64,000 nt of DNA from Oscillospiraceae bacterium (lineage in GTDB: Bacteria > Bacillota > Clostridia > Oscillospirales > Ruminococcaceae). The notes beneath the pieces were generated by a model. That model was not told where the DNA came from and did not search any database. It saw only the letters and a program-made list of their open reading frames with translations. The translations under genes were made by a program, and so were the position numbers. Numbering within the stretch: the stretch's first letter is position 1; the number at the start of each line of letters is the position of its first letter. The DNA is taken from contig JAFRJM010000015.1 in assembly GCA_017432285.1 (NCBI GenBank), forward strand, positions 19,955-83,954, read 5' to 3'. Shown piece by piece: positions 1-12,010 of the stretch.

Positions 1-1
1 T

Positions 2-145
2 TTTATTGTAAACACTAATTACGTGCGACGTATTTCTTCCAATATGCTCGAGCTCGAAGGTACTGCTGACTTAGTCCCTATAGGCCGCTTATACTCAGAC
101 AAACTTAAACAAAAGTTGTTCGGTTTAGAAGGAGGTAACATTTAG
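2..145 (+). CDS. LytTR-type response regulator, C-terminal fragment (gene starts upstream of window; AgrA-like)
   Basis: Frame open from window edge: FIVNTNYVRRISSNMLELEGTADLVPIGRLYSDKLKQKLFGLEGGNI*. The pattern (..VN..yI..i....l.L..G..vPiuR.Y...lK..l) matches the C-terminal strands of LytTR DNA-binding domains. TAG stop 143-145 overlaps the GTG start of the next gene by 1 nt. Too short for the ORF track. Confidence 0.55.
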   Translation, partial: FIVNTNYVRRISSNMLELEGTADLVPIGRLYSDKLKQKLFGLEGGNI

Positions 146-1494
146 TGACTATTCCTGCTTCTTTGTGGTCAATTATAGAAATATCTATAAATGTATTGGA
201 TAGTTTTCTGATCCTTCTCCTTATTACTTCATCTCTACCTATGAAAATTCAAGCAAAATTGGTGTGGATTGGGTCAACCGTTGTTCTCGCTATAATTTGC
301 TCGATAGCAAACAAGTACTGTACCTCTATTTTCCAAATGCTTCTAGTCTTAACAATGTCTTTATACGCATTCACCTTCTTTTTCACAGATGGAAGCATAA
401 CCACAAAAATTTTCTGGACAATATTCACCCAAATCATTTTCTTCGGAAATGATATGATTCAAAGTAGCCTGGTATTAAAGATTCTTCATGACGTACCGAG
501 TGATATTATCTATCAACCAGGCGCTGTCCGTTTATACCTCATGGTAATAACGAGAGCCACTTTGATTGTTTTAATTTTTAGCTTAAGGAAAAAACATATC
601 CTTTTCTATTCATCCAGAAAACAAACCTTAATGCTTTTGCTTTGTCCTATTTTGAGTTGGATCTCTCTCCTTCTATTAACCAATCTCTTTGCCAAAAATC
701 AACTTTATGATTCATATGTTATAATAAGCACCATTTTGATTTGTGCCATAAATGCCGTATATGTTTATTTGTTTGTAAATTTAAAAATTAGAGATGATAC
801 GATTAATGAAAACAACCTTATCATACAGCGACTTGAGACTGACAAACGTCTTTATGAATCCGTAAAACTTTATAATGCTCACCTTGCTGAATGGAAACAC
901 GATATCAACAAACATCTTCAAGCTATCCTTGGATTGCTCAAGAATAATAATTCCACGCAGGCAATTGATTATATTACAAAGGTTGAAAACGATTTATTTA
1001 CTACACCTCAACCGGTAAATACAAATAATCCTCTTTTTGACAGCTTAGTAGGTGGTTATTGCGGTAAAGGCACCTCTCTAGGAATACAAATTTCATTGGA
1101 GCTTATGGTCCCCCCACTAGATTTTATCGATGAGCTGGATATGTGCAGCATAGTGGGAAACATATGGGAAAATGCTATAAAAGGTTGTCTTGACTCCGAC
1201 TGTGAACCAAAACAAATTCGTTTTAAAACAGATATATCTCACAATCACTTTATGTTGGAAATGACAAATTCTTATTCCAGTTCGAGTGCTAATATACCTA
1301 ACAAAAGTGAATCAAGGCACGGACTAGGGTTGAAAATCATTGAGAAAATACTCGAAAAGAATGACGGCTTTTATACTATAACAACCTCTGATTGTTTGTT
1401 CTCTATATATATCGCCATTCCCTTCAAACACGATGATAGTAATAGCCCTAACAAAGTCAACGCATTCTTTTGGAAGAACTATCAAAATGATTAA
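145..1494 (+). CDS. AgrC/ComD-type (HPK10) membrane sensor histidine kinase
   Basis: 449 aa; about 6 hydrophobic helices in the first ~210 aa; H-box 'AEWKHDINKHLQAI', N-box 'VGNIWENAIKG', G-box 'RHGLGLKIIEKIL' (GHKL ATPase). GGAGG at 131-135, 9 nt before GTG 145. Confidence 0.8.
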   Translation: MTIPASLWSIIEISINVLDSFLILLLITSSLPMKIQAKLVWIGSTVVLAIICSIANKYCTSIFQMLLVLTMSLYAFTFFFTDGSITTKIFWTIFTQIIFFGNDMIQSSLVLKILHDVPSDIIYQPGAVRLYLMVITRATLIVLIFSLRKKHILFYSSRKQTLMLLLCPILSWISLLLLTNLFAKNQLYDSYVIISTILICAINAVYVYLFVNLKIRDDTINENNLIIQRLETDKRLYESVKLYNAHLAEWKHDINKHLQAILGLLKNNNSTQAIDYITKVENDLFTTPQPVNTNNPLFDSLVGGYCGKGTSLGIQISLELMVPPLDFIDELDMCSIVGNIWENAIKGCLDSDCEPKQIRFKTDISHNHFMLEMTNSYSSSSANIPNKSESRHGLGLKIIEKILEKNDGFYTITTSDCLFSIYIAIPFKHDDSNSPNKVNAFFWKNYQND

Positions 1495-2035
1495 TGAGCT
1501 AACTACACTATATGCGGATGCTCTAGTATCTCATGGAATCATTTCTCGCGACCAAAAAGAAATACACATTTATGGCTTGGCTGCTCTTATTATTAATATA
1601 TTGAATTACAGTGTATTTATTCTTCTTGGTATTTGCTTTGGTTTCGCACTTGAAACTATCATTTTTTTCTTTTTTTATGTTTCACTAAGAAACATAATTG
1701 GAGGAAGGCATGCCTCGTCACCTATATCTTGCTTGCTCTATGGTGTCTTAATGTGGATATTAATGATTCTGATCTATAACCATGTCCACCTCACTTATTT
1801 GATTGAGTTTATTATATCATTTATCCTTTTCGCAAGTCTTTCGCTTATTATTCATAAAAAGGAAATAGCATTTATAAGGAAACAAGTGGGTATCATTTTG
1901 CTAACTGCTCAATTTTTTACAAGTGTCATATTGCTCTTGTTAAATAGCCCATTATCTTTTTTAATAACTCTTTCTATTTTTTCCAATTTAATAATGAATT
2001 TGTATCTTTTTCCAACAGCTTTAGACAAAATATAA
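1487..2035 (+). CDS. agrB: AgrB-family membrane cysteine peptidase (autoinducing-peptide maturation)
   Basis: Polytopic ~182-aa protein with 'LRNIIGGRHASSPISC'. His75/Cys82 have the same 7-residue spacing as the catalytic H77/C84 of S. aureus AgrB. ATG 1487 overlaps the kinase stop (ATGATTAA). The ORF-track start 1433 lies inside the kinase gene and is unlikely. Confidence 0.8.
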   Translation: MINELTTLYADALVSHGIISRDQKEIHIYGLAALIINILNYSVFILLGICFGFALETIIFFFFYVSLRNIIGGRHASSPISCLLYGVLMWILMILIYNHVHLTYLIEFIISFILFASLSLIIHKKEIAFIRKQVGIILLTAQFFTSVILLLLNSPLSFLITLSIFSNLIMNLYLFPTALDKI

Positions 2036-2376
2036 GTTCGTACTATATATCTGCTAAATTAAGCATAAATGAGAATTCGTTTGGAGCTTGATGTGGTTGA
2101 TTCAAATTAGTTTGTAATGCAACTTAGTTTGGAATTGTTCCAAAATACCGTTTTACGCAGTTCAGTAATAGGATACTTCGTTAGTATAAAAAACTTCAAA
2201 ATAGCACATTGCACATTTTTGAAACTACAATAACCAAAAACTAATAGTAAAGCAATTGAATTATGTATGTTGGTATGTGACTACATCGAACATACTGCAG
2301 ACAACACCCAGCAACATGCATAAACCATGCAGCAGAGCATTTATAAAAGTAGGCATTTGGAGGGAGGGATTGTAGT

Positions 2377-3336
2377 ATGCCATATATTGCCCGTGCGGCA
2401 GTTCAGCTGAGAGACACCTATCCGGACTGTGGTATTGATGAATGGCATTTCATTAAGCGCATCGATAGTATTGAGTATAGATGGAGGCTAAAGAAGAATC
2501 ATGCATATGAAGTGGTTAGCGGAATCTTTGATGAGCGTAAAGAAGCTCTGTTATCTGCAAAACAGATGTACGTGACACTTTTCTATTTTATGCAAATAGG
2601 TGGTATTGCATTATCAGAGTCGGGATGTCAATTCTACGAGCCAAATCTATATGTAGAGGAATTTGATGGGGATAAAGACACCTTTTTTGATAATGAAGAA
2701 TATTTCTTCTATTCCAAAAACAAGCAGGGTGAGAATTGGGGCCCAAGTGTATATGAAGTTGAGAACAGTTTTGAGGAACTTTCAGAAATACACGACTTTT
2801 CTATGACGGTTTCAATACAATGGCCTGGTTTTGACTTGAGTTTTGACAACGTCGATGACTACTTGTTCACATATTCTTCGGAAGCCCAAGAACTCTTGAA
2901 TGCTGTCGATCTGGCAACACGGGCGAACGATTTCGGCATGGGTATGACAATCTACTGTGGACTCTTGGAACATTTGTCTGAGACAACAGATAAAGATCAA
3001 GATGTTCTTGCTGTGATTGATGATCTTATTAAATCAGTTAATTCGACGACACTGACAGAAGAAAAGAAAAGTTCATTGATAAACTATCTGAAGCTCGGGC
3101 GGAAAATCTCGGCAAACCAAAAGTGTACAACACTTTGCAAAAAATACGCAAAGGATAGTTATAGAAGTTTTATGACAAAAAATATAATTAGGGAAGCATA
3201 TAGAATCCGAAGCGCTTTTACTCATGGCGAAAACTACGACACTCTTGAATTGGAATGTGCAGCATACATTAAGTTGGTCGTACTTGATGTTATAAGGAAC
3301 TATCTCGCCAAAAAGGAGAAGGATTCCTTTGTCTGA
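2377..3336 (+). CDS. Hypothetical protein with C-terminal HEPN-like (ApeA-like) Rx4-6H motif
   Basis: 319 aa; strong RBS GGAGGGAGGG 2359-2368. C-terminal helical region ends in 'REAYRIRSAFTHGENYD' (R276/R278..H283, nt 3202-3225), resembling the 'Y..RS.iaHG' form of the HEPN RNase motif. I do not recognise the N-terminal ~170 aa. Confidence 0.55.
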   Translation: MPYIARAAVQLRDTYPDCGIDEWHFIKRIDSIEYRWRLKKNHAYEVVSGIFDERKEALLSAKQMYVTLFYFMQIGGIALSESGCQFYEPNLYVEEFDGDKDTFFDNEEYFFYSKNKQGENWGPSVYEVENSFEELSEIHDFSMTVSIQWPGFDLSFDNVDDYLFTYSSEAQELLNAVDLATRANDFGMGMTIYCGLLEHLSETTDKDQDVLAVIDDLIKSVNSTTLTEEKKSSLINYLKLGRKISANQKCTTLCKKYAKDSYRSFMTKNIIREAYRIRSAFTHGENYDTLELECAAYIKLVVLDVIRNYLAKKEKDSFV

Positions 3337-3639
3337 ACAAGCATCATCGATTTTCTCCAAAGTCTAAGATATGTGCGATTTGACATGGAACAATGGTGTG
3401 TCCGATTGGCATCATTTTCTATAAGCTTGTATATTACCCAATGGACACTTTCTCGTTTTTGCAAAAGTAAACAAATGTCGAAAGACACGTATCTCATACT
3501 TGTACGATTCTGTGATTTATGTTATCCCCAGCGGACATTGGGAGAAATGTGATAACAGAGTAATTAAATAAGATTAAGTAATTAGGAATGAAAGGAAATA
3601 TGCTGTAAGTGGTTATCACTACATCATAAAACTATAATT

Positions 3640-3969
3640 ATGCCAAATTCTATTTATTTATATGATACTGCAGGCAGTTGGATTGCTTTCAGGATCGGGA
3701 AATATTTATTTAATACTAACGGTGACTGGATCGGTTGGTTCCCCTGGGAAGGTATTGCAGTTGATACAGAAGGCTCCTATTTAGGCTCCATATATTCGAA
3801 TAATAGGCTTCTCGTTGATTTGAATATCCATTCCCTTCCATACCCAGGCTACCCAGGCTACCCAGGCTATCCGGGCTACCCAGGCTATCCGGGTTTTGCT
3901 GGGTATTGTGGCTTTATACCACATACTGCTGATGTTAGTGAAGATAAGCTGAGCGGAGGTGCAAAATGA
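3640..3969 (+). CDS. Small beta-hairpin-repeat protein with (YPG)n low-complexity linker
   Basis: 109 aa. Internal repeats YDTAGSWIAF / FNTNGDWIGWF / VDTEGSYLGSI, then PYPGYPGYPGYPGYPGYPGFAGYCGF. It is the only in-frame start after the stop at 3589-3591; no obvious RBS. Its stop overlaps the ATG of the next gene (ATGA). Confidence 0.6.
   Translation: MPNSIYLYDTAGSWIAFRIGKYLFNTNGDWIGWFPWEGIAVDTEGSYLGSIYSNNRLLVDLNIHSLPYPGYPGYPGYPGYPGYPGFAGYCGFIPHTADVSEDKLSGGAK
3841..3912 (+). repeat. In-frame 9-bp tandem repeat (TACCCAGGC-like, 6 good + 2 degenerate units) encoding (YPG)n
   Basis: Read directly: tacccaggc x3, tatccgggc, tacccaggc, tatccgggt (3841-3894), then the degenerate units tttgctggg and tattgtggc (3895-3912). 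Confidence 0.95.
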
Positions 3970-4646
3970 AGACAATCCACGCGTATGAGAGTCAAAAGAT
4001 TCTTGATACGCTTAAACAAAACATAGAATCGTTCAGAATACTACTTGAAACAATAGATGATGATGTTACTCGGCAGAACATACTTCGATCCATGCTATTA
4101 TTTGCTTGTTTTGGAATTGACGCCATTGTAAAACAACTAATAAATGAGGCACTTAGTCTTGTCATAGAGAGAGAAATAGGAGCACAGGAACAATTAAAGA
4201 AGTACACCTCAAGAGAATTGAAGAAAGATTCAGACTACACTCTCACGGCCGAACTCTTGACTGTAAAAGATAGCAGGAAATGGTTGATAGAAAGATTAAA
4301 GGTGGAACTTTCTATCAACAGTTTACAAAGCGCTGATCAGTTATATAAGGTTGCTTCGTATTTTAATATAAGCACCGAAAAACTGGTAGACAAAGATAAT
4401 AAAGCGATACTAAAAGATGCTTTTCACACTAGAAATATAATAGTTCATCAGATGGATATTGATCTGGCTAATAATACAGTTAACAGGCATGAGATTGAGG
4501 AAATCAATGATTTTGTGCAAACAATTTATATGGTGGCGAACAATTTTATTACTGAAGTAAACAATATCTTATGTAAACCCGTTACAGATGATTATGCCCC
4601 GATGTTTTCTTTTGAAAATGGCGTCTTTTCTATACGAAGCGAATAA
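3966..4646 (+). CDS. Predicted HEPN-domain protein (Rx4H), translationally coupled to the upstream repeat protein
   Basis: 226 aa, apparently all-helical. 'KDAFHTRNIIVHQMD' gives R156-N-x3-H161 (nt 4431-4448), the canonical HEPN RN..xH signature near the C-terminal third. GGAGG 3955-3959 sits 6 nt upstream of ATG 3966, inside the preceding ORF. Confidence 0.6.
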   Translation: MKTIHAYESQKILDTLKQNIESFRILLETIDDDVTRQNILRSMLLFACFGIDAIVKQLINEALSLVIEREIGAQEQLKKYTSRELKKDSDYTLTAELLTVKDSRKWLIERLKVELSINSLQSADQLYKVASYFNISTEKLVDKDNKAILKDAFHTRNIIVHQMDIDLANNTVNRHEIEEINDFVQTIYMVANNFITEVNNILCKPVTDDYAPMFSFENGVFSIRSE

Positions 4647-4680
4647 TTACAGGTACTTATTTCTGATATGTGTGATTAAA

Positions 4681-4699
4681 TGACAACATTTTGACAACA
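4681..4699 (+). repeat. Tandem direct repeat TGACAACA-ttt-TGACAACA upstream of the AlbA_2-like gene (possible operator); third copy at 6134-6141
   Basis: Read directly: tgacaaca 4681-4688 and 4692-4699 (11-bp period), about 80 nt upstream of ATG 4776. The same 8-mer occurs at 6134-6141, 3 nt after that gene's stop. I did not see it elsewhere in the window. Confidence 0.4.
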
Positions 4700-4775
4700 A
4701 ACAATCAGATTGCCCCTGCTTTTAGGCTAGTCAGAACACCTGGGGTATTTCTATTAAATAGAAGGAGAACATTCC

Positions 4776-6131
4776 ATGGCAGAATCTCAAAACATCGAAT
4801 ATAAAGCATCTTGGCGCGATGAATACCTTAAATGGCTATGTGGTTATGCAAATGCTCAAGGCGGAACTCTGTTCATCGGTATAGATGATGATGGAAACGT
4901 AGTAGGTGTTAATGACAGTAAGCAATTGGCAGAAGCCCTGCCAAATAAAATCACAAATGCATTGGGAATCATAGCCGACGTAAATCTCAACACAAATGAT
5001 GGAAAAGACTTCATCACAATCACGGTAGAGAAGTATCCTTCCCTTATCAGTTATCATGGTCGTTACTATTACAGATCCGGCAGTGTGCTCCGGGAAATCG
5101 TAGGCAAAGAATTGGATAGGGCATTATTAAAAATCCAAGGTGTCACCTGGGACGCAATCCCATTGCCCAAGATTACGGTTTCTGATCTCAAACCGGAAGC
5201 GATTGCTTTATTCAAGCAGAAGGCTTTGGCACGCGGTCGCTTGACAACTGAAGATGCAAATGTCAGTGAGAAGATCCTTATGGAAAATTTACACTTAGTA
5301 GATGACGATGGATTATTAACACGTGCAGCGATGCTTGCATTTTATCATGACCCAGAACGTTGGGTGACAGGTTCATATATTAAGATTGGATTCTTTGGGT
5401 CATCTCATTCAGATCTCCAATATCAGGACGAAGTTCACGGGCCTTTAATTGAACAAATTGACCGAACTATCGATTTGGTTTATACCAAGTATTTGAAAGC
5501 CCGAATCACTTATGAAGGGATTCAGCGGGTTGAAGTGTTTATGTTCCCTCGAGAGGCATTCCGTGAAATACTGCTCAACGCTGTTGTCCATAAAGACTAT
5601 TCTGCATGCAACTCCATTCAGATCAGTGTCTATGATAACGAGATGTATATTTGGAATGATGGTCAGATGCCGGAGAATCTTCGTACGACAGAGAGTCTTT
5701 TTGCTAAACACTCATCCAAGCCTTTTAATCCAAAACTTGCCCATGTATTCTTCGTTAGCGGCATGATCGAAGCATGGGGCCGTGGGTTTGATAAGATCAA
5801 ATCCGCCTGTGATGCACTATATCATACTCCTATGCCGGAATATGACATTGGTGCTGGTGGAATTATGGTTCATTGCAAAGCAAATGATAAGTACCTGGAA
5901 TTGATGAATCCAAATGGACATAATGTCCAAAAGGATGTCCAAAAGAAAAACAAATTGGAAGAGCGGATTATAGAACTTATATCTGCCCAAAGGGACATTT
6001 CATTGTCTAAAATGGCTGACCAATTAGGTGTCTCCTCAAAAACTATTCAAAGAAGCATTGGAAGACTAAAACAGAGCGGGAAAATAAGCCGACGAGGAGG
6101 AAAACGATTCGGATACTGGGAACTGCATTAA
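4776..6131 (+). CDS. AlbA_2 (Schlafen-like, 'divergent AAA/AAA_4') + HATPase_c_4-like + C-terminal wHTH protein
   Basis: N-terminus 'ESQNIEYKASWRDEYLKWLCGYANAQGGTLFIGIDDDGNVVGV' is the classic AlbA_2 signature. Middle region 'REILLNAVVHKDY...EAWGRGFDKI'. C-terminal 'IIELISAQRDISLSKMADQLGVSSKTIQRSIGRLKQSGKISRRG' looks like a wHTH. GAAGGAGA RBS. Confidence 0.8.
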   Translation: MAESQNIEYKASWRDEYLKWLCGYANAQGGTLFIGIDDDGNVVGVNDSKQLAEALPNKITNALGIIADVNLNTNDGKDFITITVEKYPSLISYHGRYYYRSGSVLREIVGKELDRALLKIQGVTWDAIPLPKITVSDLKPEAIALFKQKALARGRLTTEDANVSEKILMENLHLVDDDGLLTRAAMLAFYHDPERWVTGSYIKIGFFGSSHSDLQYQDEVHGPLIEQIDRTIDLVYTKYLKARITYEGIQRVEVFMFPREAFREILLNAVVHKDYSACNSIQISVYDNEMYIWNDGQMPENLRTTESLFAKHSSKPFNPKLAHVFFVSGMIEAWGRGFDKIKSACDALYHTPMPEYDIGAGGIMVHCKANDKYLELMNPNGHNVQKDVQKKNKLEERIIELISAQRDISLSKMADQLGVSSKTIQRSIGRLKQSGKISRRGGKRFGYWELH

Positions 6132-6146
6132 TATGACAACACTTAA

Positions 6147-6630
6147 ATAATTCTTAAGATTGCAGAGGATGAGATCCCGTTTGAGATCCCGGAGAGCTGA
6201 AAATGGTACAGAATTGGTAAAGTCTTTAATATAGTAAACAGGTTTGCTCCTCTAAAAAGCAACTCAGAGTTCTGGTTAAATAGCAATATTCCATGGTTCA
6301 CAATTAAGGATGTTTGTCGACAGGGCAGATTTATATCAACTACAGAAAAGTATATTTCGTAGAAGGCGCTATCGAAAAAACACAGAGAGAATTGTTCCTC
6401 CAAATAGTGTATTGCTATGCTGTACTGCATCAGTTGGAGAGTATGCGTATACCAGAGTACCTCTTCCAACAAATCAGCAATTCAATGCTTTCGTTACGAA
6501 GCTTGAGTTTGACGATGCTGTTTTCCATCTGTATGTCTTTGAATTCGCGAAGACCCTACCGCTTGCCGAGCAGAAGCACATCGTTGCCCAGTTGGAAGAG
6601 TTGCTTCCACTGTGCGAGAGATTGAAATGA
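6147..6630 (+). pseudogene. hsdS: Decayed type I restriction-modification specificity subunit (HsdS) remnant
   Basis: Reads 'IAEDEIPFEIPES*KWYRIGKVFNIVNRFAPLKSNSEFWLNSNIPWFTIKDV..TTEKYIS*', then shifts frame twice to 'EGAIEK' and 'TERIVPPNSVLLCCTASVGEYAYTRVPLPTNQQFNAFV...LPLAEQKHIVAQLEELLPLCERLK'. These are typical HsdS TRD and conserved-helix motifs. No start codon; TGA (6198-6200) sits where the conserved Trp of 'PesWkW' is expected; at least 2 frameshifts, one near the A6 run ~6374-6380; the segment before 'LPLAEQ' looks shortened. Confidence 0.75.
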
Positions 6631-6719
6631 GGTATTTGTAAAATGATGACCGGGCCTGTAAAAGAGAATTTATTATGTTTGGTAATTGTTAATATAGATG
6701 GAGACGCTAGTATCCTCAG

Positions 6720-9449
6720 ATGACGATAGATAATAAGATTTCAAATATAAATGACATTATCTGTAGAAATATAGATTTAATTGATTTCGACGGAGTGACA
6801 AGGGCCTTGGTGGCACAGAATCTTTTAAGTCAGTCCAGGAATCTTGTCGAGCATATTGCTTTGAAGATTTTTTCTCAGGGAAAGGATATTGACGTTGACT
6901 GGGATACCATTCCGCAAGCAATGGAGTTTATAAAGCGGGATAACAAATATCAGTTTCTGCGTAGTTTTCACTCTTTTTTACAAGAGTCGAAGTCACATTA
7001 TACTCCGGATAACGAAGGCGCTGAAAGGTTAGTAATAAAGTATTATCAGTATTATTTGCAAATACGGGAATTCATGAAACAAGAATATCATGTTAATATC
7101 CTTCAGAACATTGAAAAATTCCCAATCGATACAGATGATACGGTTCAGGAATATCAGAAAAAGATAGCTTTACTTATTGATCGACCTTATGATATTCGTA
7201 GTTTTTCTCATGAACCAAGGATGTATGTTCACAAAACGGTTCCTTTTATTGTCTCAAACCGGTTATACTATGAAATTACATTAACACCCGCCTATGATAC
7301 TACGAGCAAGTTTGATCGCTTTGTTTGCTATTCATCCATCATGGTCCCTTGCCATTACTCTATTAAATCTGATATTCATTATGAGAAGATCGACATCAGA
7401 GGAAGGAAAATGCCGGTAAATATTCTTACTGATTTTGTTGTTTCAGTAAGGCCGTGCGAATTGAATAATTATGCCAGTCTTTTTGGTGCCAAAATTAAGA
7501 TGTCTGCCTCGCATTCAGAATACACAGGGATGATGTCATATTTGTCTAAATCTGGCGTGAGCTTGCTGGATATTGTCAATTCATCAGAGAGCGAATATGT
7601 CTGGATAAAACGTCAGATGTTCAGTCGAAGTCAGGCACATCACTTTGAACCGATTCTTGACAAAAGTAGAGATATAATCAGCAAGAATAAACCTGGTTCA
7701 AATGTTATCAGGTATCTTCTACATACCTTAAACAACAAAATTATAAAAACGCAGAGAAATGATAAAAGCAATTTTAGGCTTTCAGATTTGTATCTGCAGT
7801 GGGGTTGTATTCCTTTTGATACGATGCCATTCGCCTCTTCGCTGATGCAACACAACCCTGGGGATCGCGAATTGTTTGGCAGCATTAGCTCGGAAGGGCG
7901 TGAGCACGAGATCCTTGCGAGATACATTCATATGAATATGAGCACCAATTCTCGGCTATATACTCCGGTAAAGGAACTCGAAGAGTACACGGATGATATT
8001 GATGAAAAAGTCCGACATTTTAACGAGCTTCTATATAGCGGTCATTCGGGACGGCGGATTGAAAGATTTGGGCAGAATCTCTATGTAAAAGAATCATATG
8101 ATCATACAAAACTAATCATAGAAAAGCTGCAGGAGATGGCACAAGAAGGAGTTCAAGGATATTCGGATGCAATAGATTTCTGGATAATGCTTGAGGCCGA
8201 TATTGATAGCGAAGAAAAGAAAAGCATACTTAGTTCAATGTTTACAAACACCCATATATCCTTAATCTATGGTGCGGCTGGGACTGGAAAAACATATATT
8301 ATTAATCATATAGCTCAGTTTTTTGATGATCAGTCAAAGCTATTCCTTGCGAATACAAATCCGGCGGTTGATAATCTTCGGCGTAAAGTAAGCGCACAAA
8401 ATTGTGAATTCATGACCATCCGTAAATATCTGATGACCAAGTATATAGATACTGAGTATGACATTCTGGTGATAGATGAGTGCAGCATGGTCAGTAACGC
8501 AGATATGGCGGCTCTTTTGGAGAAAGTGAAATTTGAACTTCTTGTATTAGTGGGAGATACTTACCAGATAGAATCAATTGTATTTGGGAATTGGTTCGCC
8601 ATGGCAAGGTATTTTGTCCCTAAGTATGCATGGAACGAACTTGTAAAACCGTACAGAACAGAGGATACTAGATTATTAGAGTTGTGGAAAAAAGTCCGAG
8701 ACTTGGATAATGATTTGACAGAGTATATCGTGAATCATGAATATGCTTCGAATCTGAATGATACAGTATTTGATAAAAAGTCTGATGACGAGATTATTCT
8801 CTGTTTGAATTATGATGGGCTATATGGAATAAATAATATTAATAGATATCTTCAGGAGAATAATAAGAACAAACCATTTAGGTGGGGAGTATGGACATTT
8901 AAAGTCGGCGATCCTATTCTTTTCAATGAATCAGAACGATTTGCTCCAGCACTATATAATAATCTCAAGGGAACTATCATAAATATTGAACTTGACCAAG
9001 ACAATGATAGCATCTGGTTTACAATTGAAGTCGATAAGAGACTAACAGCTTTGGATGTCAGGCATAACGGACTTGAATTACTGGACCCAATAAGCAAGGG
9101 TAAATCGGTTGTTAGGTTCTACGTATCTAAAAAGCGAGATGCAGATGATGATAATGACTATGCTGATGATACAGATATTCCTTTTCAGATAGCTTATGCT
9201 GTATCAATCCATAAAGCGCAAGGTTTAGAATATGATTCAGTCAAGGTTGTAATCACTAAAGACATTGATGAGATGATTACGCATAATATATTTTATACTG
9301 CTATTACTAGATCAAGAAGGTACTTAAAGATTTATTGGAGTCCAGAAAGTCAGCATAAGGTGCTTAGTAGCTTTACAATAGCAAACGCGAAACGTGATGC
9401 TTCTATATTCTCTGGGCAATCACAAATCAAAATGAAAAAGTTACAATAG
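6720..9449 (+). CDS. SF1B (RecD/Dda/Pif1-like) helicase with ~515-aa uncharacterised N-terminal region
   Basis: 909 aa. Walker A 'YGAAGTGKTY' (nt 8271-), Ia 'LANTNPAVDNL', Walker B 'LVIDECSMV', III 'LVGDTYQIESI', V/VI 'YAVSIHKAQGLEYDSVKVV' and 'FYTAITRSRRYLKIY'. An SH3-like insert ('FKVGDPILFNE..GTIINIE') is typical of RecD-family helicases. Residues 1-515 have no motif I can assign. Confidence 0.75.
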   Translation: MTIDNKISNINDIICRNIDLIDFDGVTRALVAQNLLSQSRNLVEHIALKIFSQGKDIDVDWDTIPQAMEFIKRDNKYQFLRSFHSFLQESKSHYTPDNEGAERLVIKYYQYYLQIREFMKQEYHVNILQNIEKFPIDTDDTVQEYQKKIALLIDRPYDIRSFSHEPRMYVHKTVPFIVSNRLYYEITLTPAYDTTSKFDRFVCYSSIMVPCHYSIKSDIHYEKIDIRGRKMPVNILTDFVVSVRPCELNNYASLFGAKIKMSASHSEYTGMMSYLSKSGVSLLDIVNSSESEYVWIKRQMFSRSQAHHFEPILDKSRDIISKNKPGSNVIRYLLHTLNNKIIKTQRNDKSNFRLSDLYLQWGCIPFDTMPFASSLMQHNPGDRELFGSISSEGREHEILARYIHMNMSTNSRLYTPVKELEEYTDDIDEKVRHFNELLYSGHSGRRIERFGQNLYVKESYDHTKLIIEKLQEMAQEGVQGYSDAIDFWIMLEADIDSEEKKSILSSMFTNTHISLIYGAAGTGKTYIINHIAQFFDDQSKLFLANTNPAVDNLRRKVSAQNCEFMTIRKYLMTKYIDTEYDILVIDECSMVSNADMAALLEKVKFELLVLVGDTYQIESIVFGNWFAMARYFVPKYAWNELVKPYRTEDTRLLELWKKVRDLDNDLTEYIVNHEYASNLNDTVFDKKSDDEIILCLNYDGLYGINNINRYLQENNKNKPFRWGVWTFKVGDPILFNESERFAPALYNNLKGTIINIELDQDNDSIWFTIEVDKRLTALDVRHNGLELLDPISKGKSVVRFYVSKKRDADDDNDYADDTDIPFQIAYAVSIHKAQGLEYDSVKVVITKDIDEMITHNIFYTAITRSRRYLKIYWSPESQHKVLSSFTIANAKRDASIFSGQSQIKMKKLQ

Positions 9450-9483
9450 CAGAAAACATATTGTTACAAACAATAGCAGAAAA
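9443..9483 (+). repeat. 14-nt direct repeat ACAATAGCAGAAAA x2 (27-nt period) spanning the helicase stop codon
   Basis: Read directly: 9443-9456 and 9470-9483. The first copy contains the TAG stop at 9447-9449. Confidence 0.9.
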
Positions 9484-9891
9484 GTGAGGATTTACGTACA
9501 CTATGCCGTTATCCATCGCCCTAGGATGCAATGGGTATGAGGCACATATGCAGCAAATCCTTAGTCCATACGGGGTTTGAGTTATAATTGGGTCACGATT
9601 TTTGCTTACAGAAACCGCCAGAATCAAGCAAAACCGAGCGTAAAACGTAAAACCATCTCAGTCTTCACGGGTGTTTTCAGAAGTGTCTGGCAGTCTTGCA
9701 AGAGATAATGAAATTCTGCAAGCGTTATATATGATGACTACATTTATGCTCAACTCTAGGGCTTGCTTTGCTGTGATTAAATATTCATAGTTTTTAATAT
9801 GTATGTAAACTAACCTAAAACTATAATCCTTTGATATCAAATAAGTGAATTCTTTCAACTCTCCATAAGTTGAGCCTTTAAGGCATAACTT

Positions 9892-9920
9892 TTGACAATC
9901 TTTTCAGTCAATGATAAGAT
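9892..9920 (+). promoter_or_regulatory. Sigma-A-type promoter candidate (TTGACA -17 nt- extended -10 TGaTAAGAT)
   Basis: TTGACA 9892-9897, 17-nt spacer, TG at 9912-9913, TAAGAT 9915-9920. It would start a ~230-nt leader for the channel gene at 10160. Confidence 0.5.
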
Positions 9921-10159
9921 TACTGATAAGAGTTGAATCTTGCCCGAGCGATAGCTTACCGTATATTGTGTAAGTATATTAAATTATACGGTTTGTATAT
10001 AAGCGCATCTGCTATAGTTACGTTTAAAACACAAAGAGTGGGAATAGTAGAGCAAATCACGGAAATCCTTATAAATAGGCTTTATCAAAGTCGCGTTTTT
10101 CAGCCGTATATAATTGTGGTTGAAAACGCGACTTTTTTAGTATAAAAGGTTTTGGTACA
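9921..10159 (+). promoter_or_regulatory. Structured 5' leader / candidate transcription attenuator (class unknown)
   Basis: Hairpin ACCGTATA (9958-9965) / TATACGGT (9985-9992). The 8-mer CCGTATAT recurs at 10104-10111 in the loop of the terminator hairpin 10090-10132. T6 tract ends 22 nt before ATG 10160. The 70-codon TTG ORF 9933-10145 has no RBS and is more likely non-coding. Confidence 0.4.
10090..10138 (+). terminator. Intrinsic terminator hairpin + T6 inside the leader
   Basis: GTCGCGTTTTTCA (10090-10102) pairs with TGAAAACGCGAC (10121-10132): 12 bp with one bulged T. Followed by TTTTTT 10133-10138. Confidence 0.65.
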
Positions 10160-12010
10160 ATGAAAAAAAAAGATCAGGTGATTATTATGGGGAAACCTTC
10201 ATTTAAAAAGAGATTTCGTTATTGGCTAGATCGAAGAATGGCCAAAGGGACTGCCAGCATGGTTAAGTTATTATTGATCATGGTTTTGACGGCCGTTATT
10301 TTTGTAACGATTTTAGTTGTTACCTTTCATTTACAGAAAGATAGCAAACCTATAATTGCGATATTCTGGGACAATTTAAGATCCGCCATGTCTTCATCTT
10401 TTCCGTCTTCTGATTCAGGTTCGCTATTATACATCGTCTTATATACGCTGTTAGGTCTGACAGGCATGGTTTTCACCGGCATGCTTATAGGTATCTTCTC
10501 TAGTGCGATGCGGGGAAAGGTCATCGCTCTACAAGAAGATAATCCGGAAATTATCGAAAAAGGACATACGGTAATTCTGGGATTCAGAATCGGTGAGTAT
10601 GCGTTGTTGAATGAATTAATCAAATCGACCGAAGGTGAGAGAAGAACCATCGTCGTAGTTGAAGACATGAAAAGGCAGGATATGGAACAAGCCATCAGAA
10701 ACAATGTCAATGTACCCAGAAACATCCGTCTGATATCTATTAAAGCCGATACCACCAGTCCTAATGCTTTAGCATGTTGTGCAATACCTGACTGTTCGAT
10801 GCTTGTCTTACATACCGGTGATAAAGGCAGAACAATCAAGACCTTATTGGCTATAGAAGTATTATTAATGAACAGCGATAAGCGTCCCGTTATTGTTGCC
10901 TCGGTTGATTCCAAAGAAGAGATCTTCTCTAAAGAAACGCTTAAAGAACGTGGCATATCAATGCTTTATTCAGGTAATGTGATTGCCAGGATTATTGCAC
11001 ATTCTGCAACGCAAACGGGTATCTATGAAGCATTATTGGATATGATAGATTATGATAATTTTGAATTCTACTTTGAATCCGGAAAAGAACTTGCCGGTAT
11101 GCCATTTGGTAAGGCAATGCTTGCTGCTAAGAAAGCTATTATCGTAGGTCTTTATCGTAATGATAAAGCGATCATCAATCCTGACAAAAGCGAGACCATC
11201 CTAGAAGATGATGTCTTAATCGTCTTTGAAGAAGAACCCGGAGATCTAATGGTCGAAAACATTGACGATATAGCAATTCCTGAATCTAAACCATTACCAG
11301 TATCAGAGCCGATTGAAGAAATAGCTATCTTGGGGATCAATCAATCCATACTGACCATTCTTAATGAATTGCCTGACAATATCAGACAGATAAAACTGAT
11401 CGGCATAAACAGTCATGATAAGGAAACCTATATCCCTAAAGACTTAGAGCTATCTTCAGAGTTGATTTATGACTCCCGTAATACCAATAAAGATCTTATC
11501 TTGGCGGAAATGCTTAAAAACACCAAACACTTATGCATCTTGGCTGATCATAAGAAAAAAGAAGAAGAAGCTGATACAGATACAATGATCAGGATCATCC
11601 GTCTAAGAAATATTAAAAAACGCTTCAATTTAAATTTTACTATTACCGCAGAAATGCGTTGTGAAAACAACCGCAATCTGATAACTTCTAAAGAAAACGA
11701 AGACTTTGTGGTTGCCACTGATCTGTCTTCAATGATGCTGGCACAGATCACCAACGATATAAGAAGAACGGAAGTATTTACCGAGCTGTTAGATGAAATC
11801 GGTTCAGAAGCTTATATGAAATCCATAAAAGATCTGGGTCTGGTTGCTAAAAAGTATACATATAGTGAATTGCAAAGCTCTTTATACGCTTATGACTACA
11901 TCTTGATCGGCATCAAAAAAGCCAATGAGAAATTCAAGGTATTAACAAATACCAATGACCTGATAGAATTAGATGAAAATGATTCAATAATAATTATTGG
12001 TGAAGAATAA
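10160..12010 (+). CDS. CASTOR/POLLUX-like putative cation channel with tandem RCK/TrkA-like domains
   Basis: 616 aa. Two N-terminal TM helices flank a pore-like loop 'SSFPSSDSGS' (compare the ADxGN filter of CASTOR/POLLUX). Two Rossmann-like starts follow: 'GHTVILGFRIGEYALLNELI' and 'EIAILGINQSILTILNEL'. Alternative start ATG 10187 has a better RBS (AGGTGA). An A9 run follows ATG 10160. Confidence 0.55.
   Translation: MKKKDQVIIMGKPSFKKRFRYWLDRRMAKGTASMVKLLLIMVLTAVIFVTILVVTFHLQKDSKPIIAIFWDNLRSAMSSSFPSSDSGSLLYIVLYTLLGLTGMVFTGMLIGIFSSAMRGKVIALQEDNPEIIEKGHTVILGFRIGEYALLNELIKSTEGERRTIVVVEDMKRQDMEQAIRNNVNVPRNIRLISIKADTTSPNALACCAIPDCSMLVLHTGDKGRTIKTLLAIEVLLMNSDKRPVIVASVDSKEEIFSKETLKERGISMLYSGNVIARIIAHSATQTGIYEALLDMIDYDNFEFYFESGKELAGMPFGKAMLAAKKAIIVGLYRNDKAIINPDKSETILEDDVLIVFEEEPGDLMVENIDDIAIPESKPLPVSEPIEEIAILGINQSILTILNELPDNIRQIKLIGINSHDKETYIPKDLELSSELIYDSRNTNKDLILAEMLKNTKHLCILADHKKKEEEADTDTMIRIIRLRNIKKRFNLNFTITAEMRCENNRNLITSKENEDFVVATDLSSMMLAQITNDIRRTEVFTELLDEIGSEAYMKSIKDLGLVAKKYTYSELQSSLYAYDYILIGIKKANEKFKVLTNTNDLIELDENDSIIIIGEE

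Follow-up and report, generated by a model that had tools for sequence, protein, structure and literature searches.

HEPN domains act as RNase toxins in toxin–antitoxin (TA), abortive infection (Abi) and clustered regularly interspaced short palindromic repeats (CRISPR) systems (PMC3710099). Here we describe a two-gene module in a stretch of 64,000 nucleotides from an Oscillospiraceae bacterium (contig JAFRJM010000015.1; this whole stretch is called the window, and positions refer to it), which encodes a predicted HEPN RNase preceded by a small beta-flower protein, designated BF-YPG. In the HEPN/MNT (HepT-MntA) type VII TA systems, the partner of the HEPN toxin is a nucleotidyltransferase that AMPylates it (PMC7641770, PMC11586414). 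The Ribo L-PSP-HEPN family (Anantharaman et al. 2013, PMC3710099, Table 1) is distantly related to AbiF/AbiD, and the contexts given for it are an endoRNase L-PSP fusion and an operon that includes ParB, a beta-flower partner being unmentioned. PD-T4-2, PD-T4-5, PD-T7-3 and ApeA are one- or two-gene HEPN defence systems placed under PF18735 (review PMC10952713). As to the partner protein, the beta-flower fold was described in 2023 without an experimentally shown function (Durairaj et al., PMC10584680). Cernunnos, an anti-phage integron cassette of Vibrio cholerae N16961, consists of a single gene with a PF21784 domain (Darracq et al., bioRxiv 10.1101/2024.07.02.601686).

With HEPN/MNT, the pair of the window shares an Rx4-6H HEPN protein, a small partner and a tight two-gene operon. 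However, its partner is a beta-flower/(GYP)8 protein without an enzymatic signature, and its HEPN is assigned to PF18735 and not to the HepT-like PF01934. An earlier note on this DNA, made from the sequence alone, had stated that no MNT partner was present; indeed, MNT-type nucleotidyltransferase families had no match in the six open reading frames (ORFs) scanned over 2377-9449. The likeness to the RiboL-PSP-HEPN family (PF18735) is a family-level sequence match with a conserved Rx4H motif, the window protein itself staying under the cut-off. PD-T4-2, PD-T4-5, PD-T7-3 and ApeA have a compact HEPN effector system in common with the pair, but their architectures differ and there was no PADLOC match. 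Like the members of the beta-flower/Tubby clan CL0395 (PMC10584680), BF-YPG has short beta-hairpin repeats whose tips carry [DNEQ]xxG, and it lacks a significant PDB match; unlike many of them, which enclose a C-terminal hydrophobic helix, it has eight Gly-x-x triplets followed by a short strand. Cernunnos also carries PF21784, and BF-YPG too occurs as a lone gene in an integron-like array of a Vibrio (V. metschnikovii). Yet Cernunnos is a single gene without a HEPN, whereas BF-YPG of the window has a translationally coupled one. Cernunnos is compared here by its description only, the WIGWFPW core and the Gly-Tyr-Pro run being established for BF-YPG alone.

The earlier note could name no defence or TA system with this architecture, and the pair is in fact absent from the resources consulted. 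Zero families of PADLOC-DB v2.0.0 matched either protein at E up to 1, neither BF-YPG nor the window HEPN matched NCBIfam, and the pair is not described in the PDB. In the searchable literature no paper describes the pair or mentions its repeat sequence; only the Darracq preprint names both HEPN and beta-flower domains, in separate systems (bioRxiv 10.1101/2024.07.02.601686). We favour, with a probability of roughly 0.55, the interpretation that the window holds one copy of a two-gene module in which a HEPN RNase effector would be restrained by BF-YPG, making it a TA-like or abortive-infection cassette.

BF-YPG and the HEPN gene are encoded together across many phyla

In the window, the TGA stop codon of the BF-YPG gene (3967-3969) overlaps the ATG start codon of the HEPN gene (3966-3968), which implies translational coupling. 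The ORFs, this ATGA overlap, the GGAGG sequence and the positions of the R156-x4-H161 motif, all noted earlier, were confirmed base for base. The features of the pair are the following.

3533-4747, + strand: transferable cassette, comprising both genes with about 107 nt upstream and about 101 nt downstream, as judged from the alignment to locus L091
3640-3969, + strand: BF-YPG gene, 109 aa (ORF; Pfam Bflower PF21784; at least 343 homologous clusters; AlphaFold2 model)
3640-3840, + strand: domain of beta-hairpin repeats (residues 1-67; seven strands predicted), with invariant W30, G32, W33, P35 and W36
3841-3918, + strand: Y68-P69, then eight Gly-x-x triplets (G70-I93), namely GYP five times, GFA, GYC and GFI
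3925-3936, + strand: tail motif T-A-D-V, residues 96-99, with invariant D98 and a short modelled strand (DSSP E96-98)
3955-3959, + strand: GGAGG ribosome-binding site of the HEPN gene, within the BF-YPG gene (sequence)
3966-3969, + strand: ATGA start/stop overlap (sequence)
3966-4646, + strand: gene for a 226-aa RiboL-PSP-type HEPN protein, predicted RNase effector
4431-4448, + strand: R156-N-I-I-V-H161, predicted catalytic Rx4H motif (invariance in homologues)

The ATG of the BF-YPG gene (3640) is not preceded by a Shine-Dalgarno-like sequence; the HEPN gene, by contrast, has the strong GGAGG.

The two genes were found together in most of the loci collected through either of them. BF-YPG lies directly upstream in 67 of 71 evaluable HEPN-anchored metagenome and viral loci; a strict upstream-gene pattern accounted for 62 of these, and inspection added five, four of which represent a variant with two HPGYPGR units. 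The loci without BF-YPG are L094, L154, L159 and L172. Conversely, the HEPN gene is directly downstream in 43 of 62 BF-YPG-anchored loci from species-representative genomes. The BF-YPG-anchored loci and pairs span more than 15 phyla, the lineages being Cyanobacteria, Bacillota, Latescibacterota, Gemmatimonadota, Planctomycetota, Alphaproteobacteria, Bdellovibrionota, Acidobacteriota, Actinomycetota, Bacteroidota, Chloroflexota, Nitrospirota, Spirochaetota, Omnitrophota and candidate-phyla-radiation lineages. In the database, one homologue is labelled archaeal (a metagenome-assembled genome (MAG) of Hodarchaeota). The distribution is patchy, with at least 86 tblastn-confirmed relatives when one genome was searched for each of 185,579 species.

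For five close HEPN homologues (P0005, P0008, P0010, P0011 and P0014), the small gene lies directly upstream, or its C-terminal end does where the contig stops. In other respects their neighbourhoods are unrelated to one another and include capsule loci, AAA_15/AAA_21 genes, and a Fic gene next to an integrase and prophage-type genes. The pair was met in more than 100 independent loci, and this recurrence, together with the invariance of R156 and H161 in the HEPN proteins (see below), indicates that the observation is not due to chance.

The arrangement of the two genes is conserved as well. A layout like that of type II TA systems, with a small upstream gene and an overlapping downstream gene, is kept across 109 pairs; the gap from stop to start codon measures -4 nt in 35 of them and -1 nt in another 20, and for 92 it falls between -8 and +5 nt. 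A Mantel test on the pairwise identities of BF-YPG and of the HEPN gave r 0.56 (p 0.001); the two proteins co-diverge.

The HEPN protein carries an invariant Rx4H motif

From its Rx4H motif, the downstream protein had been taken for a HEPN protein of unnamed type. The best Pfam match of the window HEPN itself is to HEPN_Apea (E 4e-4, 21.2 bits; cut-off 24.4 bits), with further sub-threshold matches to HEPN_Swt1 and HepT-like. Its homologues at 55-59% identity score above the cut-off of PF18735 (28.9-34.5 bits against 28.4), and in that region they also match other HEPN families, more weakly. Of 36 family members, 27 match PF18735 at E <= 1e-3. According to these profiles, membership in PF18735 (HEPN_RiboL-PSP) holds for the family and not for the window sequence by itself, and it is through its homologues that the protein is now placed in the RiboL-PSP type.

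Two alignments were used to assess conservation, one of 36 genes that follow beta-flower homologues in other genomes, the other of 61 database proteins. R156 and H161 are invariant in both, in agreement with the earlier reading of the motif. The earlier note had held that a lack of conservation of these residues, or of synteny of the two genes elsewhere, would speak against its reading; neither was the case. R41, F46, D52, Q57, S119, Q121, S122, F133, F153, M163 and D164 are also invariant in the alignment of 36 sequences, and the invariance of R41, D52, Q57, S119, Q121 and D164 is reproduced with the 61 sequences. N157 is invariant in the larger alignment and conserved in at least 90% of the sequences of the smaller one. 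A database search with the window HEPN returned only 14 relatives; an exhaustive profile search put the size of the family at 918 clusters at 50% identity with E <= 1e-3, 431 of them at E <= 1e-30. The AlphaFold2 model of the window HEPN is almost wholly helical, with a confidence score (pLDDT, predicted local distance difference test) of 93.5.

Proteins in which beta-flower and HEPN are fused were sought as a sign of physical interaction, and there were none among the matches listed. The long HEPN forms P0255 and P0258 were rejected as gene-calling artefacts, their N-termini ('ATPATQAIQ...') resembling an out-of-frame reading of the YPG repeat; another long form, P0308, has an N-terminus unrelated to the beta-flower.

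BF-YPG combines a beta-flower domain with a fixed-length run of Gly-x-x triplets

The resemblance of the upstream protein to small beta-flower proteins, proposed in the earlier note, was borne out by a profile match: residues 6-73 of BF-YPG align with positions 19-86 of PF21784 (4-fold beta-flower; E 2.4e-7), and the score of 31.6 bits exceeds the curated cut-off of 25 bits. The '3.5 copies' of a short unit seen previously in the sequence correspond to the seven strands that AlphaFold2 places in residues 4-60 (pLDDT 91.2 for the whole model). The hairpin-tip motifs DTAG, NTNG and DTEG of the translation fit [DNEQ]xxG. At least 343 clusters of homologues, of about 100-115 aa, have the whole architecture of BF-YPG.

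What follows the hairpin repeats had been described as an uninterrupted (YPG)6 linker. This view has to be revised, since the segment is a length-conserved series of eight Gly-x-x triplets that is modelled at high confidence. In the Gly-first register the repeat reads G-[YF]-x, and its longest run is exactly eight triplets in 65 of 95 non-redundant family members. At the DNA level the YPG run is a 9-nt tandem repeat (3841-3903). Residues 61-95 have no regular secondary structure in the AlphaFold2 model, and yet their pLDDT is about 89-95. We infer that the tail may come back as an eighth strand, which would fit the 4-fold, 8-stranded barrel of the beta-flower family. If so, the triplet run would form a structured, polyproline-II/collagen-like excursion in place of the fourth hairpin tip.

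Foldseek found no significant match for the BF-YPG model in the PDB, which agrees with the original description of the beta-flower fold (PMC10584680), and likewise none among the viral structures of BFVD. No DNA-binding domain that could serve autoregulation was recognisable in BF-YPG in the Pfam and NCBIfam scans.

The pair has the properties of a mobile cassette

The closest relative of the pair, in locus L091, delimits the unit that appears to be transferred: positions 3533-4747 of the window are 91% identical to positions 2569-3781 of L091 over 1216 nt, and beyond this cassette the similarity ends on both sides, save for one 103-nt match elsewhere in L091. The latter aligns 4762-4864 of the window, the 5' end of a gene for an AlbA_2/HATPase_c_4/HTH (helix-turn-helix) protein, with 1071-1173 of L091 (86% identity over 103 nt), the start of a similar 449-aa gene. 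As the AlbA_2-type gene lies upstream of the pair in L091 and downstream of it in the window, it is a neighbour of the pair in both, in opposite order.

Nothing convincing was found when terminal repeats bounding the cassette were sought. A perfect 8-bp inverted repeat, GTGATAAC ... GTTATCAC (3549-3556 and 3612-3619, 55 nt apart), is present just inside the left end of the cassette and is shared with L091; it might act as an operator or form an RNA hairpin, and is short enough to occur by chance. The best promoter-like site (3406-3435) was discarded as a promoter of the pair, because it lies outside the conserved cassette and such sites are not more numerous than expected from shuffled sequence.

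The 123 genes flanking the pair in 31 loci have no family in common, the commonest, AAA_21, occurring in five, and no conserved third gene was found in these flanks. Defence genes are scattered among them, namely restriction-modification genes of types I, II and III, Avs2, PDC-S68, AriA and mad genes. As judged from these comparisons of loci, the pair is an autonomous cassette that is horizontally mobile.

BF-YPG often occurs alone and the HEPN protein rarely does

The two genes are not equally dependent on each other. The HEPN gene is found without BF-YPG in 4 of 71 loci, and BF-YPG without the HEPN gene in 19 of 62 (about 31%). In one of the four former loci, L094, a HEPN of the family (2470-3672; PF18735, 33.1 bits) has an N-terminal extension, and a gene for an XRE-family HTH protein stands upstream in the place of BF-YPG; the BF-YPG partner appears to have been replaced there.

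Solo BF-YPG genes fall into three groups. The first is a Bacteroidota/Bacillus subclade of six loci. In four of these, from four Bacteroidota genomes, BF-YPG adjoins, or lies within 2-3 kb of, the gene for a Piwi-domain (prokaryotic Argonaute, pAgo) protein of about 700 aa (L018 5995-8460; L026 5995-11248; L039 5995-10523; L046 3817-6324), and these loci sit on related elements with a DUF3987/PriCT_2 primase. The proximity may reflect cargo linkage or an alternative partner. The second group is an Actinomycetota/Alphaproteobacteria subclade, and the third consists of sporadic recent losses, for instance L070, which is 93% identical to the paired L069. A further solo BF-YPG gene, in Vibrio metschnikovii (L173 4001-4321; CP101483.1, 915 kb), stands amid many very small ORFs and a ParE/Phd pair, in what looks like a superintegron cassette array of chromosome 2.

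In five loci the HEPN gene is broken by a frameshift or a nonsense mutation while BF-YPG is intact. In one of them, L037 (6309-6995), a lone in-frame stop codon takes the place of the nearly invariant Gln of 'EQDLLRAM' in the HEPN gene, downstream of an intact BF-YPG gene; the inactivation appears to be recent.

The window copy lies in a low-G+C island with other candidate defence genes

The G+C content is 34-39% over positions 1-12000, against 42-49% in the remaining window, and the step near 12000, just past a channel gene, is the probable right edge of an island. The neighbouring genes considered are the following.

145-2035, + strand: genes for a GHKL histidine kinase (HATPase_c_5) and for AgrB, forming an agr-like quorum-sensing pair where the low-G+C region begins on the left
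2377-3336, + strand: gene for a 319-aa protein just upstream of the pair, with a weak match to HEPN_Apea (E 0.0077)
Downstream of the pair, 5' end at 4762-4864: gene for the AlbA_2/HATPase_c_4/HTH protein
6720-9449, + strand: gene for a 909-aa superfamily 1 (SF1) helicase (AAA_30, Viral_helicase1, UvrD_C_2)
10160-12010: Castor/Pollux-TrkA_C-type channel gene

These data bear out the AT-rich island with an AlbA_2 protein and a large helicase that had been reported. The helicase matches the PADLOC candidate PDC-S53 along its whole length (1191.8 bits) and is likely to be a single-gene defence candidate in the same island as the cassette. Among the other neighbours named in the earlier note, the hsdS relic is clear in PADLOC (Specificity_I, E 1.5e-8) though weak in Pfam (Methylase_S, E 0.0012), and the second HEPN protein is a weak match. 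The latter, the 319-aa protein, contains an Rx4H-like R-S-A-F-T-H stretch within YRIRSAFTHGEN; it may be a second HEPN effector, unrelated to the HEPN of the pair. Rfam and tRNA scans of the window found nothing.

Discussion

In the interpretation that we favour, the HEPN protein would be a cytoplasmic RiboL-PSP-type endoribonuclease with an Rx4H active site, acting as a growth-arresting effector or toxin, and BF-YPG would be a beta-flower protein in which eight Gly-x-x triplets, a run of fixed length, take the place of the fourth 'petal'. Both proteins would be made together through translational coupling, and BF-YPG would bind the HEPN and hold it inactive. Titration, degradation or remodelling of BF-YPG, most plausibly by a phage-derived cue, would free the RNase, which would then cut cellular and/or phage RNA; the outcome would be abortive infection or the stabilisation of a mobile element. 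The RNase activity, the toxicity, the physical binding, the sensing partner and any phage phenotype are predictions of this interpretation. A restrained RNase explains the order and overlap of the genes, why BF-YPG is almost never missing next to the HEPN, the decay of HEPN genes with BF-YPG kept, the mobility of the pair and its island context. The fact that the HEPN gene is rarely alone, that BF-YPG often is, and that HEPN genes are found broken next to intact BF-YPG genes is what would be expected of an effector and its restrainer.

Several observations weigh against this interpretation. The old and coherent solo subclades and the lone integron-like cassette of Vibrio point to a function of BF-YPG that is independent of the HEPN. 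BF-YPG is also the more conserved protein of the two, with a mean identity of 57% versus 41% for the HEPN. Antitoxins of type II systems tend to diverge faster than their toxins, and the conservation of BF-YPG and HEPN is the reverse of this. Long-read MAGs are the source of three of the five broken HEPN genes, and the frameshifts of L025 and L035 could be assembly errors; such an error is less likely for L037. Some genes flanking the pair are housekeeping genes, such as those for seryl-tRNA synthetase and LysR regulators. No match to either protein was obtained by tblastn against phage records, and against plasmid records there was none for the HEPN and only two for BF-YPG. As to the HEPN itself, the window protein alone is under every Pfam HEPN cut-off and does not match PF18735. 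Foldseek of its confident model against the PDB gave nothing significant, the sole HEPN structure listed, 8yuf_B (a HEPN toxin), being at rank 41 with E 2.1, and the profile of the HEPN alignment had no match among PDB sequences. Because the PDB searches gave nothing, its assignment as a HEPN is based on profile matches together with the invariant motif and not on a comparison of folds.

A restrained RNase leaves the long-lived solo lineages and the high conservation of BF-YPG partly unexplained, and we therefore considered the possibility that BF-YPG is itself the primary anti-phage protein, as in Cernunnos. Its Trp-rich face and Gly-Tyr-Pro finger might for example bind a conserved component of the phage or the cell, and the HEPN would be an added second-line effector or an RNA-binding accessory that needs no neutralisation. 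The 19 of 62 BF-YPG genes without a HEPN beside them, the two coherent and well-conserved solo subclades, the lone gene of V. metschnikovii, the precedent of Cernunnos as a single-gene PF21784 defence system and a conservation above that of the HEPN all fit such a role; indeed, the solo genes (about 31%) and Cernunnos together make it unlikely that BF-YPG is only a passive antitoxin. It would not explain why the HEPN is so rare without BF-YPG (4 of 71), or why an overlap that favours co-translation is preserved across phyla. Moreover, Cernunnos is likened to BF-YPG through the PF21784 domain in its description and may lie outside the BF-YPG subfamily, and none of 5,426 E. coli genomes gave a blastn match to a Vibrio BF-YPG gene, though homologues of Cernunnos have been reported in Escherichia prophages. 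On balance we regard this explanation as less likely than a HEPN RNase restrained by BF-YPG, while keeping it as a substantial alternative.

Two other explanations are less likely than a primary defence role of BF-YPG. The pair might be a plain type II-like TA addiction module that stabilises the islands or elements carrying it and plays no part in phage defence. This would be in keeping with a small gene followed by a toxin gene with overlapping codons, with an autonomous cassette in variable flanks, with toxin genes that decay while the partner stays intact, and with the XRE-family HTH gene in the place of BF-YPG in L094. We nevertheless find it improbable: BF-YPG has no recognisable DNA-binding domain for autoregulation and is unusually conserved for an antitoxin, with a long evolutionary persistence alone; hardly any plasmid records carry the family, although addiction modules are common on plasmids; and several copies adjoin defence genes. 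A housekeeping role outside any conflict, for instance in RNA processing or turnover with BF-YPG as a structural partner, is suggested by the housekeeping genes in some flanks and by the fact that some eukaryotic HEPN proteins, Las1 for one, process RNA (PMC3710099). It is very hard to reconcile with the patchy distribution (at least 86 relatives in 185,579 species), the differing genomic positions in close relatives, the low G+C content of the island around the window copy and the existence of pseudogenised copies, and we give it very little credence.

Whatever the role of the HEPN, the solo genes bring to mind a broader function for BF-YPG. Tentatively, it could be a widespread and self-sufficient sensor or adaptor, in which a beta-flower barrel with a fixed-length Gly-Tyr-Pro, polyproline-II/collagen-like finger reads a conserved infection cue, either alone or wired to an effector that is mostly this HEPN. 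It would work alone as Cernunnos may do, in the integron-like array of Vibrio and in the solo subclades.

The pair is no local curiosity of one genome: it is a widespread, tightly linked two-gene module found across many phyla, in which a predicted HEPN RNase is joined to a previously undescribed beta-flower/(Gly-Tyr-Pro)8 partner. It adds a compact 1.0-kb candidate, missed by PADLOC v2, to the repertoire of TA and defence systems. The eight Gly-Tyr-Pro-type triplets are an unusual structural element, of conserved length, in a protein of about 105 aa. In Cernunnos, one beta-flower protein guards against phage; the coupling of a sharply defined beta-flower subfamily to a HEPN now provides a concrete candidate for a functional partner of the fold. 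If BF-YPG does act as a sensor or adaptor, this would give the beta-flower fold its first mechanistic role, and the pair would represent a new class of sensor–effector immunity.

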